From: a phage
Sequence record: PV419677.1
Reading direction: 5' to 3' (one strand)
Length of the DNA stretch: 64,000 bases
Of this stretch, positions 4,386-60,845 are shown piece after piece; the first letter of the stretch is position 1; each line of letters begins with the position of its first letter. Position numbers and translations under genes: made by a program. Under the pieces are notes generated by a model. The model searched no databases. It saw only the letters and a program-made list of their open reading frames with translations, and had not been told where the DNA came from.

Positions 4386-4926
4386 CAAGAACATAATAAT
4401 CATCAATAAATCCAGCATCAACTACCACGAATTTCTGGTCAACTGGAACAAACCATTCAAGCTCGGAATCAATCATGTCCATGTATTCTTCACGCCTTAA
4501 TGTAGCTGCCCGGTCGGAACCAGAAGCTGTATTGAAGAATTCAAGTGGAACATCAAGTGCGATTTTGCGCATCGCATCATGGTAACAAAAAGCTTTGGTC
4601 TGATTCAATCTGACGATAGTCCTAGTCACATATTCCATTGCAGCAAAATCCCTGGCAATACCATAGTCTTCTGTAAAGGAGGTTATCCGTCCAAATTCAA
4701 AAGGTTGCATTGATTCTTTTGCTTCATCTAACAAATCAATCTCTTGCTGGGTTACTCCGCGCCACAAGACTGTATCGGGTATAGACAACCTTGACTTGAT
4801 GATTGAGTTGACATTTGAATGCAAGGTCTTATCAACCTTTGATGTGCGGCATTCAAATAATGAAGCTATCTCCATTTCACTAAATTTTAACTGGTTGGGT
4901 TCGGTATCAGATTTGATGATGTTCAT
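4366..4926 (-). CDS. modB: ADP-ribosyltransferase, ModB-like
   Basis: 186 aa, similar architecture to the adjacent ModA-like gene (LWRG, SFTEDYGIARDF, acidic C-terminal E-x-E region). Confidence 0.6.
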   Translation of the reverse strand: MNIIKSDTEPNQLKFSEMEIASLFECRTSKVDKTLHSNVNSIIKSRLSIPDTVLWRGVTQQEIDLLDEAKESMQPFEFGRITSFTEDYGIARDFAAMEYVTRTIVRLNQTKAFCYHDAMRKIALDVPLEFFNTASGSDRAATLRREEYMDMIDSELEWFVPVDQKFVVVDAGFIDDYYVLDCVQEQ

Positions 4927-15857: not shown

Positions 15858-17267
15858 TTAAAAATCAAACATATCAAAAAGAGATGCTTTTTTCTCGTAA
15901 TCAACCTTAGCTGCTTCAGAGAACCCTGTTAACGGTTTGACAAAAGTCTTCTGGAACAGTGTGTTGTAGTCCATCCACTGCAAGACTTGGTCACGGATTT
16001 CAATCGGGAGTTCAATCCCAGATGGCCATGCAATCACGGTTTCACCAAACGGGTTGCCGACTTTAAGAGGAAGTACATACACCTTTTCCCCTTCCATGAT
16101 TTGTGGAACAGTCTTCAGACCTTTAGTTGCACGCATATATGCAAGCACACCTTTGATATGAGCCGGGCACTTAAATCCAGGGAAACCACCCTCATTATAT
16201 TTCTGAATGTTGTTAACCGATGATACACCTGCGATGGTCATGTAGTTAAGCTCATTAAATTCCTTATTGAATTCCTTGAAGTATGTCTGCAGAGATTCTT
16301 CACCTTCTTGCAGCATGCGACGGATACATTCTTTCAGAGCTTTCTGACATGCTTTTGGTGTGCTCGACTTTTGAGTTTCCAGACCCATGATTTTCAGTTT
16401 CGGAACAGCATATCGTGTGCCTTCCATATCGTACACATTCAGAGCATAACGCTTCTTCGCTGTCCAGAATCCACCAACACCTTTAGAACCAAGCGGAGGA
16501 CATGCAATCGCTTCACGGTCCATAAACATAAGGTGCTGTTTGTTGTTCATGTATTCAGCCAGTTCACGGAAAGCTTTATCGATTGCCGGTTCCAGACGGT
16601 CTTTCGCAAACTTGTCCATGAAGTCAACCAGGTGGTTTGTATCGCGGAATTTCGATTCGCCACCAACCTTTTTAATCAGGTTATCGCACTGGATATAAAT
16701 GGAGTCAGTATCGCCATAGAATACATATGTTTCACCACTTGTACCACAAACACTATCAAAATATTCGTTAACTTTACGCTCAATCCACTGCAATGCAAGT
16801 TGTCCGAAAGATGTAATCGCGGTTGCATTTCGCAGGTCAAAGTAACGGAACCAGATATTTCCCACAATTTTGTTCAGTTGAAGTCGTTAATTTCAACCCG
16901 GAATTATATCCAGCTGCATGTTGCCATGCAGAGCAGACTATATCATCATCTTTCGATGCCATGCGCTTCCAGCCACTTGGCTGTACTCCTTTCGGATAGT
17001 CGTTGCACGTTCCTATAATAGGCTTCGCTCAGGATTGTCTCATAGAGATGTCCCCTGAATTCACATGGTTTAAAGTGCGCCGGAATACTTGGTTAACGCA
17101 CCATAACAACTGTTGATAAGCAATTTGCGGTTAATCTGTGCAGTATTTGCCGCAATTTCTGCCATTTGCGAATTATGCAAATGACTTTCCAAATCCGCCC
17201 TTGATAATGTTTTTAAATATGCAATTTGCGAATCATCAAAATCTATATTATAATCAATATTCATCAT
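15858..17267 (-). CDS. 43: DNA polymerase C-terminal subunit gp43B, two exons: join(15858..16864, 17096..17267) if the intron is spliced
   Basis: exon 1 encodes motif B KLLINSCYGAL, exon 2 encodes GNIWFRY... and motif C YGDTDS; both in the same frame, separated by 231 nt with stops. Confidence 0.75.
16865..17095 (-). other. putative ORF-less group I intron in gene 43
   Basis: exon ends in U pairing with G of an internal GCGCAC guide; R-like CAACGACUAU and S-like GAUAUAGUC can form P7; GNRA hairpin CUGCAUG-GCAA-CAUGCAG; last nucleotide G. Confidence 0.6.
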
Positions 17268-59107: not shown

Positions 59108-59602
59108 TTAAATTTCAAATTCTTTGCGGAAGTTGGAAGCATAAGACTGAACTGATGCTTTGTTGAATCCAAACTCACGCACAATCATATCAATAACAGC
59201 TCTGCGAGCAGCACCATTAGACATATTAACAGTTTTGAACATATCATAGCATAAATCTTTGTTGCTCATACCGGAGCGTTTAGGTGCCTTACGTTCAGCT
59301 TTTGGTTCAGTCTTAGGAGTAGGTTTAACTTCTGGTTTAACCTGTCCATCATTCAGACCTTTAAAAATTTTACCTGCCAGTGTTGCCAGTTTAGCAGCTT
59401 CGCCACGAGTGATACCAAATACTGCCGGGTTAAATGAAATACCTTCAGCTGTCAGACGTTTGAAGAACATACGTGCAGCGGATTGTGCTTCAGCTTCAGA
59501 AGAGTTGTTTAATGCCAGTTTAACATACTTAACCAATTTTGAAGTTTTCATTTTATTATCCCGTTTGTTTATTTGGTAACTCAGTATGGGATAATTATAC
59601 AC
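59108..59602 (-). CDS. hypothetical protein, paralog pair member
   Basis: 164 aa; C-terminal GAARRAVIDMIV...QSYASNFRK shared with 59635-60141. Confidence 0.5.
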   Translation of the reverse strand: MYNYPILSYQINKRDNKMKTSKLVKYVKLALNNSSEAEAQSAARMFFKRLTAEGISFNPAVFGITRGEAAKLATLAGKIFKGLNDGQVKPEVKPTPKTEPKAERKAPKRSGMSNKDLCYDMFKTVNMSNGAARRAVIDMIVREFGFNKASVQSYASNFRKEFEI

Positions 59603-59634: not shown

Positions 59635-60141
59635 TTATTTTTGAGCTTTGCGGAAGTTGGAAGCATAAGACTGAACAACAGTCTTTTTGATATCATGGGT
59701 GTTAACCAGAACATCAATCAGAGCGCGACGAGCTGCACCATCTGCCATATCAATTTCTGCAAATGCCTGGAAGCAAATGTCACGAGCATTACCAGATTTG
59801 GACCGGATTTTTTCTTCTTTAACTTCTTCAATTGGGAATTCAATCATTTCAGCTTGGATTAATTCAATGATAGATTCTTTTGACTGTTTGGTGTTTACCT
59901 TCAGTTCAGAATTAAGGGACTTGGCAATGGCAACAATCTGGGTTGAAGTCAGATGAATAAGTGCATCTTCACGAATGCAGATTTCACATACTTCGTCAGC
60001 AACCATTTTGTTGGTGATGCGGGTAACAGAGAATGCAGAGGTCAGGGTCAGGAAGTTCATTTTATTTCTCCAAAGTTTTGTTTGATTCAGTGTGTAACTC
60101 AGTATGGAATCATTATGCACCCGGTCAATTCGGATGTACAC
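59635..60141 (-). CDS. hypothetical protein, paralog pair member
   Basis: 168 aa; C-terminal GAARRALIDVLV...QSYASNFRK. Confidence 0.5.
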   Translation of the reverse strand: MYIRIDRVHNDSILSYTLNQTKLWRNKMNFLTLTSAFSVTRITNKMVADEVCEICIREDALIHLTSTQIVAIAKSLNSELKVNTKQSKESIIELIQAEMIEFPIEEVKEEKIRSKSGNARDICFQAFAEIDMADGAARRALIDVLVNTHDIKKTVVQSYASNFRKAQK

Positions 60142-60148
60142 TACTTTT
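60112..60148 (-). promoter_or_regulatory. T4-type early promoter
   Basis: AAAAAGTAGTGTACA, 17-nt spacer, CATAAT, GATTCCATACTGAGTTACAC leader. Confidence 0.55.
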
Positions 60149-60188
60149 TGAAGAAAATTTCAAATTTATTCGGGGTATAAAAAAGCCC

Positions 60189-60217
60189 CAACCTTTCGGA
60201 AGGGGCTATGCCTTGCG
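60189..60217 (-). terminator. intrinsic terminator downstream of the tRNA region
   Basis: minus strand AGCCCC...GGGGCT hairpin followed by TTTTTT. Confidence 0.5.
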
Positions 60218-60269
60218 GCAACCTTGTCGGGGTTCCACCTGCTAAGGCAAGTGTTTGTACGAAACGCCG

Positions 60270-60360
60270 GGATTTGAACCCGGTTATTAAGTAGTTGACG
60301 CTACTCAATATTTTTAAAAGGCCATATCTCGACCATATCCGAACGTTCCGTCAAAAACGC
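60270..60360 (-). ncRNA. tRNA-like element (acceptor stem and T-arm only)
   Basis: 7-bp acceptor-like stem CGGAACG/CGTTTCG and T-arm CCGGG-TTCAAAT-CCCGG, but no canonical D or anticodon arm; internal 9-bp hairpin. Confidence 0.35.
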
Positions 60361-60599
60361 TGCTCGGCTTACGGCAAAGATATTCCCTCGAATCGATAAT
60401 TCTGTGCGCCGTTTCAGCTGTGATATAAGGGGACATCAACAAATCGTAAAGATTTATTAATGCCAGTCCTTAAACAGGGAACTTCAGTCCGACGACTTAC
60501 CGGTAGCGACCCGGTTTCTTGTTTGTTGCGCCGGTGAATGCTGATAATCAGTCTTCATACGACGGCTTGACTATATAATAGTCTTCATTTGGTATCCCG

Positions 60600-60674
60600 C
60601 CCTGGGATCGAACCAGGACCGCAAACTTAGAAGGATCGTATGCTATCCATTACACCAGCGGGACATAGTTGGTG
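60600..60674 (-). tRNA. tRNA-Arg (anticodon UCU)
   Basis: hand-folded cloverleaf: acceptor GTCCCGC/GCGGGAT, anticodon loop CTTCTAA, T-loop TTCGATC, encoded CCA. Confidence 0.75.
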
Positions 60675-60679
60675 ACCCA

Positions 60680-60756
60680 GACCAGATTTGAACTGGTAAC
60701 CTTTCCCTTATGAGGGGACTGCTGCTAACCATTGAGCTACAGGGCCTTAATTCTAT
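60680..60756 (-). tRNA. tRNA with anticodon CAU (Ile2 or Met type)
   Basis: hand-folded: acceptor GGCCCTG/CTGGGTC, anticodon loop CTCATAA, T-arm ACCAG-TTCAAAT-CTGGT, encoded CCA. Confidence 0.65.
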
Positions 60757-60845
60757 TATGAAAGGTTCTTTGAGGGAAGAACCTTTGGTAATAGAGGGTA
60801 CTTAATAATGATATAGTAATAATATCACATAATTCTTAAAGCATA

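Follow-up and report, generated by a model that had tools for sequence, protein, structure and literature searches.

An ortholog of T4 species 1 RNA (rnaC) at the end of a phage tRNA transcription unit, and the four-way-junction fold indicated by its homologs

The minus-strand interval 60395-60259 of the window (the whole 64,000-nucleotide stretch of phage DNA analysed here, sequence record PV419677.1) is most probably the rnaC gene of a T4-like phage, the last gene of its transcription unit, encoding a four-way-junction RNA with the topology of a tRNA; we put the probability of this reading at about 85%. In every respect that can be tested the segment is a member of the T4 rnaC family. The preliminary description of the segment 60270-60360 had suggested an analogue of the T4 stable RNAs of species 1/2; this proved right and can be stated more strongly, the RNA being an ortholog of T4 species 1 RNA, with 133 of 137 positions identical in a pairwise alignment (97%) and the same synteny. 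In a blastn comparison with NC_000866, 100% of the query was covered at 97.4% identity, with rnaC annotated under the match, and the sequence is present in 750 phage records. A covariance model built from homologs (R1) gives a single match in the window, 60255-60395 on the minus strand (162 bits, E ~1e-34), and every helix of the family (terminal acceptor stem, T-arm, long arm, 9-bp hairpin and loop-loop pairing) is present in the window sequence. The full 137-nt RNA (60395-60259) has an MFE z-score of -4.5, with 1 of 200 shuffles folding as well.

Over 60150-60800 the sequence matches Shigella phage fPSFA at 100% identity and hundreds of T4-like phages, T4, T6 and RB69 among them, at 94-97% (T4 itself ~95% across the region). 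Judged by its sequence, the phage is a member of the T4 group (Tevenvirinae). The gene order on the minus strand is tRNA(CAU), tRNA-Arg, rnaD, rnaC, terminator. The elements of the unit, in the direction of transcription, are:

60670..60746, minus strand: tRNA with anticodon CAU (ARAGORN; Rfam tRNA 53.9 bits; CCA end encoded)
60590..60664, minus strand: tRNA-Arg (UCU) (ARAGORN; Rfam 48.8 bits; CCA end encoded; 75/75 identical to T4 tRNA-Arg)
60521..60589, minus strand: variable spacer of ~69 nt between tRNA-Arg and rnaD (66 nt missing in T4; holds ATGAAGACT twice and the palindrome GACTATTATATAGTC)
60402..60520, minus strand: core of the rnaD (species 2 RNA) ortholog (X03016 and HM137666 annotation, alignment; fold z = -2.9)
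60259..60395, minus strand: rnaC (species 1 RNA) ortholog (137 nt by T4 annotation; aligns to X03016 species 1 RNA, 4741-4877)
60207-60258, minus strand: non-coding 3' trailer from rnaC to the terminator (60207..60254 if the ACAA tail is left out; fold z = -3.5; a 7-bp hairpin and smaller ones)
60179..60206, minus strand: intrinsic terminator (hairpin 60206-60185, U tract 60184-60179; aligns to the 'pot. terminator' of X03016)

The T4 records X03016 and HM137666 list tRNA-Arg, species 2 RNA (rnaD), species 1 RNA (rnaC) and a terminator on one strand, and comparison of their feature tables with the alignment places rnaC of the window likewise after tRNA-Arg and rnaD, before the terminator and on the same strand. 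In T4 the primary transcript crosses the tRNA cluster and stops after species I RNA; the eight tRNAs and the species I and II RNAs all derive from it (PMC2330249). RNAC is a late RNA in T4, which accumulates late in infection as seen by northern blot (PMC9697503). The function of species 1 RNA was called unknown in a 2010 review and in papers from 2022 and 2025. The tRNA(CAU) gene of the window is the counterpart of the T4 tRNA-Ile gene; T4 records list tRNA-Ile or tRNA-Met under the match. Cleavage by RNase III and self-cleavage of the precursor also belong to the background on species 1 RNA and carry no weight as evidence here.

The preliminary description had placed its segment next to the two tRNA genes, which is incorrect, as rnaD and the spacer, ~195 nt together, lie in between. 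Its guess that 60361-60599 may hold further structured RNA was borne out, since this stretch comprises 35 nt from the 5' end of rnaC, a 6-nt spacer, the rnaD core and the ~69-nt spacer after tRNA-Arg. Within rnaD, conservation is seen in the first 45 nt (5') and the last 25 nt (3'), around an exchangeable centre that occurs in three unrelated versions (12 homologs, T4-type phages). Its 3' end reads ...GCGCACAG in the window and ...GCGCACCA in T4; the ending CACCA is found only in T4, with CACAG in the window and CACCG or CACCU elsewhere. The final 30 nt of the variable spacer recur in the homologous locus L043, and other phages carry unrelated sequence or an ORF at this place; in related phages the ORF has ~115 codons (RB69ORF150c-like). 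At 60590-60746 (minus strand) the two tRNA genes have no segB between them; T4 has eight tRNAs and segB, and the layout of the window resembles that of RB69.

The trailer and the terminator are 94-97% identical to those of T4, RB69, VR7 and PaulHMueller. The trailer is as conserved as rnaC and may be part of a processing signal or a separate 3'-derived small RNA. The terminator, which folds as a hairpin and is annotated as a terminator in G4507, was missed by a simple scan because its stem is interrupted. Just downstream of it lie two adjacent minus-strand ORFs, 59108-59602 (164 codons) and 59635-60141 (168 codons), with the common C-terminal motif GAARRA.ID..V...VQSYASNFRK; they look like tandem paralogs. 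The two-ORF region has a 95% identical copy in VR7, is ~40% identical to RB69 and barely aligns to the short T4 stretch compared. Elsewhere in the window a group I catalytic intron is found at 16914-17127 on the minus strand (Rfam RF00028, 81 bits).

The structure was derived from 33 distinct homologs of at least 11 phage genera. In the window it comprises the following elements, from the 5' end:

60389..60395, minus strand: P1 5' strand, CGAUUCG (pairs with 60266-60260; covaries)
60319..60388, minus strand: P2, long arm at the D-arm position, ~70 nt (covariation; MFE fold recovers P2a and P2b)
60388-86 with 60321-19, minus strand: P2a
60383-73 with 60334-24, minus strand: P2b
60367-63 with 60343-39, minus strand: P2c
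60359-56 with 60347-44, minus strand: P2d
60355-48, minus strand: P2 apical loop
60349..60354, minus strand: kissing half 1, UUGACG in the P2 apical loop (complementary to 60300-60295 in 33/33 distinct homologs)
60286..60309, minus strand: P3, 9-bp hairpin at the anticodon-arm position (9/9 pairs with both-side changes; 93.6% of cells paired)
60300-60295, minus strand: kissing half 2, CGUCAA, the P3 loop (exact complement of UUGACG)
60267..60283, minus strand: T-arm (5-bp stem, loop UUCAAAU; UUCGAAU in T4)
60255..60266, minus strand: P1 3' strand and tail (CGUUUCG 60266-60260, invariant discriminator U 60259, then ACAA)

In a MAFFT alignment of 15 sequences, 92.0% of cells pair as against 85.2% with shuffled partners and 36-44% with slid partners, and both sides have changed in 17 pairs. 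In the model-aligned set of 33 sequences 91.5% of cells pair (79.6% shuffled), with both-side changes in 32 of 50 pairs, a nested count that is inflated by the fitting of the alignments (A5 and A6) to the nested structure; because the sequences are related, the shuffle controls should not be read as probabilities. The bases invariant across the 33 sequences cluster in the junction (G7 A8 G9 G10, C76, A111 A112 C113), the T-loop and the kissing loops, the discriminator U, and the CA two bases on.

The segment first singled out, 60270-60360, is a real feature with wrong limits: the alignment puts rnaC on 60395-60259, so the segment amounts to the 3' two-thirds of the gene and falls ~10 nt short at its 3' end, where the 3' half of the T-stem and the acceptor strand, to 60260, are cut off. 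Taken alone, these 91 nt show no folding advantage over shuffled sequence (z = -0.89; 40/200 shuffles as good). The canonical T-arm described there is present (CCGGG 60283-60279, loop TTCAAAT 60278-60272, CCCGG 60271-60267) and covaries, and so is the 9-bp hairpin (60309-60301 with 60294-60286, loop CGTCAA), which covaries as well. The description did not recognize a cloverleaf core; a junction core does exist, in the form of a four-way junction with a long arm at the D-arm position. Two copies of GATATGG were correctly noted, at 60339-60333 and 60328-60322, but both lie 5' of the hairpin and do not flank it. As a meaningful repeat the duplication was rejected: its copies stand in different structural contexts, and the repeat is lost in other genera.

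For the 3' strand CGUUUCG, covariation is seen with the true 5' terminus of the RNA (60395-60389) and not with the internal CGGAACG. At pair 3 of P1 all T4-type sequences (14) have A-U and all others (19) G-C, and the pair is broken in none; pair 2 is G-C, A-U or G-U. Overall P1 is only 73% paired, because 31 of the 33 sequences carry two U.U mismatches. In Tegunavirus these mismatches are replaced by U-A and C-G, and the stem is fully paired. The T-arm is paired in 99.4% of cells and two of its pairs have double changes (33 sequences): pair 3 of the stem is U-A in 17, G-C in 13 and A-U in 1, and pair 2 is C-G in 31 and U-A in 2. Erwinia phage Virsaitis27 (L003:706-845) has a 6-nt T-loop, UGCAUC, in place of the usual 7-nt UUCGAAU, with all other helices intact; either a sequencing error or a variant that is tolerated could explain this. 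No homolog departs from C and A at 60257-60256, and the 3' tail is CCA-like (ACA in T4-type phages, CCA in Marfavirus, UCA in Tegunavirus). The mature RNA may end in GUA, in GUAC or in the CCA-like NCA.

In the long arm, the strands of P2b are AUAUCUUUGCC (5') and GGUCGAGAUAU, the latter with the second GATATGG copy in it, and both sides have changed in 10 of the 11 pairs. P2c and P2d are 98-100% paired, the type B central domains included. The arm exists in two unrelated versions, each of which ends in a hairpin that presents UUGNNG. Type A (T4-like) occurs in T4-type phages, Tegunavirus and many Karamvirus and Moonvirus, and type B in Marfavirus, Gelderlandvirus, Kanagawavirus and some Karamvirus and Moonvirus. 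The kissing helix formed by this tip with the P3 loop is absent from the covariance model and nevertheless pairs without exception (100% of cells), A-U being exchanged for G-C and C-G for U-A; the compensatory variants are UUGAUG/CAUCAA in Tegunavirus and UUGGCG/CGCCAA in Marfavirus. As the covariation concerns two positions in two or three clades, it represents few independent events. From the comparison of the homologs the loop-loop pairing is likely to be real.

The genera from which rnaC homologs were collected are Tequatrovirus, Mosigvirus, Gaprivervirus, Karamvirus, Moonvirus, Winklervirus, Kagamiyamavirus, Tegunavirus, Gelderlandvirus, Kanagawavirus and Marfavirus, to which one unclassified Citrobacter phage is added. 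In Moonvirus, Karamvirus, Kagamiyamavirus and Gelderlandvirus rnaC sits between two tRNA genes and takes up all the space there except for spacers of ~6-7 nt, as in Met-rnaC-Gly (Moon), Trp-rnaC-Gly (Pet-CM3-4, CW742, Melville) and Phe-rnaC-Trp (EcS1), an arrangement to be expected if the tRNA processing machinery matures the RNA. Genera in which both neighbour genes differ have retained rnaC; it is also kept in the window phage and RB69, with two nearby tRNA genes each, and in VR7, where none is annotated within ~700 nt. Among T4, RB69, VR7, PaulHMueller and the window phage, rnaD, rnaC and the trailer constitute an island of 86-97% identity, the flanks of which are ~40% identical or unalignable in most comparisons, with the exception of VR7 (95-99% downstream of the terminator).

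Pattern scans of IMG/VR recovered known isolates and a few metagenomic copies, and no structural class besides the PEi20-like L035 and the CW742-like L036; the loci L030-33, L037, L039 and L048 were discarded as chance matches. The scan of a single metagenome gave one more Marfavirus-type copy. In bacterial and archaeal genomes the pattern matched 26 times, as against ~35 matches expected by chance, with 0 confirmed by the model and no sign of the family. In public records the rnaC segment is often misread: ARAGORN calls part of it tRNA-Lys(ttt) or tRNA-Stop(tta) in L023:750-843 (Escherichia phage G4507) and L044:980-1073, two variants in which one A of the linker is missing, the GenBank record of G4507 enters it as a tRNA-Lys gene, and many other records have a 'hypothetical protein' over it or leave it blank.

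A degenerate tRNA or tRNA pseudogene, as the preliminary description had considered, would take CGGAACG/CGTTTCG as its acceptor stem, the 9-bp hairpin as a long variable arm and CUUUUAA as a Lys-like anticodon loop. The 7-bp complementarity on which this relies (60350-60344 with 60266-60260) does exist, and is 88-90% paired across homologs, but covariation does not support it as a stem: in 30 homologs it shows zero compensatory changes and is paired in 88.0% of cells as against 90.5% with shuffled partners, its pair 3 is A.C in many genera, and three of its pairs are lost in Tegunavirus. CGGAACG is in fact part of the P2 apical loop plus the 3' strand of P2d. This stem would destroy both P2d and the kissing pairing, which covary. 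The tRNA-Lys(ttt) and tRNA-Stop(tta) calls in L023 and L044, like the tRNA-Lys entry of one GenBank record, speak for a tRNA; however, the ARAGORN calls in these 1-nt deletion variants are false positives that use the non-covarying stem. In the window itself, where a tRNA finder and Infernal on the minus strand had been proposed as the check, ARAGORN and the Rfam tRNA model give no match at the segment, nor does any curated Rfam family in the interval, even at the permissive threshold (E up to 10). The UUUU run is not conserved (UUUG, UUAC, UUCU and UUAU occur), and T4 annotation starts species 1 RNA 45 nt farther upstream. We consider a degenerate tRNA very improbable.

The same complementarity might have a role beside P1, with which it competes: both acceptor pairings could be used, the one with CGGAACG in the precursor or in an alternative conformer, as a processing or folding switch. 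In T4-type sequences the internal pairing is thermodynamically stronger than P1, and in CW742 it is perfectly Watson-Crick. The replacement of G.U by A.C at pair 3 keeps the wobble geometry, G.U and A.C being isosteric wobble pairs, and partial complementarity persists even with type B central domains. Against these points, the internal pairing is impossible in Tegunavirus, it does not covary, and shared ancestry can explain the co-occurrence; a switch seems improbable. Conservation at a level other than RNA, that is, of a small protein or of a DNA signal (a homing or recombination site, or a -35-like box in TTGACG), is hardly credible. ORFs of 34-55 codons do overlap the gene and several GenBank records have a 'hypothetical protein' there, and the homing endonuclease SegB, which targets the tRNA region of T4-like phages (PMC2330249), could homogenise T4-type sequences. 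However, the variation tracks base pairs and not codons, many of the pairs are G.U, which is possible on this strand only, the gene is kept where both neighbours differ, and the RNA is experimentally known in T4. The homologs are 140-144 nt long with 1- and 2-nt indels, which excludes a protein-coding reading.

In the rnaC fold with P1 as the acceptor stem, the likely loop-loop pairing closes the body of the RNA and leaves no free anticodon-like loop. An acceptor/T-arm minihelix suffices for recognition by RNase P. That of rnaC would make the RNA a substrate of the host RNase P, with a predicted cut 5' of C60395; such processing would fit the conserved minihelix and the flush placement between tRNA genes. 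The minihelix may also engage the host enzymes that trim tRNA 3' ends, as for the neighbouring tRNAs, and its recognition by tRNA enzymes would explain the flush placement of rnaC in other genera. The closed, largely double-stranded body would in turn explain the stability of the RNA.

As for function, rnaC may, speculatively, be a tRNA mimic without a decoding role, its partner being a factor that recognises the acceptor/T-arm shape; candidates are host or phage enzymes that process, modify or target tRNAs. The suggestion stems from the masking of the loop at the anticodon position and from the small number of conserved bases free for antisense pairing; as nearly all conserved bases outside helices sit in the junction, the T-loop or the kissing loops, antisense action is not expected. 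That rnaC would serve as a decoy or sink for such a factor is a doubtful speculation, which we rate as rather less probable than its opposite. The CUUUUAA linker was considered as a mimic of the tRNA-Lys anticodon loop (a decoy for an anticodon nuclease) and rejected: the run is not conserved outside T4-type phages. Whether rnaC is a conserved tRNA mimic with a new fold, the loop at its anticodon position being permanently masked by 6-bp kissing with the tip of an expanded arm at the D position, is in our estimate an even bet. At least 11 genera preserve the kissing architecture, despite the wholesale replacement of the long arm in some cases.

Finding rnaC here is a rediscovery, as T4 annotation has included the gene since the 1980s, and its identification here leaves the knowledge of this genome unchanged. 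What may be new is the covariation-backed architecture, above all its exchangeable arm and its loop-loop pairing; the accessible literature, a body that does not extend to the original species 1 RNA papers of the 1970s-80s, gave no account of this fold. The gene is mislabelled as tRNA-Lys, tRNA-Stop or hypothetical protein, or left blank, in hundreds of phage records, and the comparative structure would support a proper covariance model for annotation. It also provides testable mutants (terminal acceptor stem, exchangeable long arm, loop-loop pairing). A fold that is both real and new would define a further class of structured RNA, and mutants of the kissing loops would then be a handle on the 50-year-old question of the role of species 1 RNA.

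In comparison with known RNAs, Rfam has no rnaC family and gives no gathering-level match in the interval, Y RNA-like and other tRNA-like families included; its sole sub-threshold match there is isrK on the opposite strand (16 bits, threshold 50). Among canonical tRNAs ARAGORN finds only the two upstream ones, and RF00005 has no further match in 60100-60800 at E up to 10. The likeness of rnaC to canonical tRNA (RF00005, especially class II) lies in a 7-bp acceptor stem formed from the two ends, an abutting T-arm (loop UUCRAAU), one discriminator base with an NCA/CCA-like tail after it, a four-way junction and a site inside tRNA gene arrays. Unlike a canonical tRNA, rnaC has no tRNA-sized D-arm or anticodon arm; an arm of ~70 nt occupies the D position, and at the anticodon position stands a 9-bp stem whose 6-nt loop is engaged in intramolecular pairing. 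The tRNA-like domain of tmRNA and the minimal minihelix substrates of RNase P resemble rnaC in having an acceptor/T-arm minihelix on a large non-tRNA body. Neither ARAGORN nor Rfam finds a tmRNA, and rnaC differs from it in that it lacks the G3.U70 alanine identity pair (pair 3:70 is A-U here and G-C elsewhere) and a tag reading frame, and in that its body is a closed hairpin system and not a ring of pseudoknots.

The co-transcribed rnaD (T4 species 2) is of similar size to rnaC and has equally conserved ends and an exchangeable central module, but it has no T-arm, shares no sequence similarity with rnaC and is not matched by model R1; it was found in T4-type phages alone, as against at least 11 genera for rnaC. 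The closest relative is T4 rnaC, which is the same gene as the window copy, of the same strand and length and with the same neighbours (tRNA-Arg, rnaD and terminator). The two differ by four substitutions, two of which are a G to A change in the T-loop (UUCAAAU here, UUCGAAU in T4) and a G for A in the internal loop between P2a and P2b, and the unit of the window phage differs from that of T4 in having only two tRNA genes upstream, no segB and a 66-nt spacer before rnaD.
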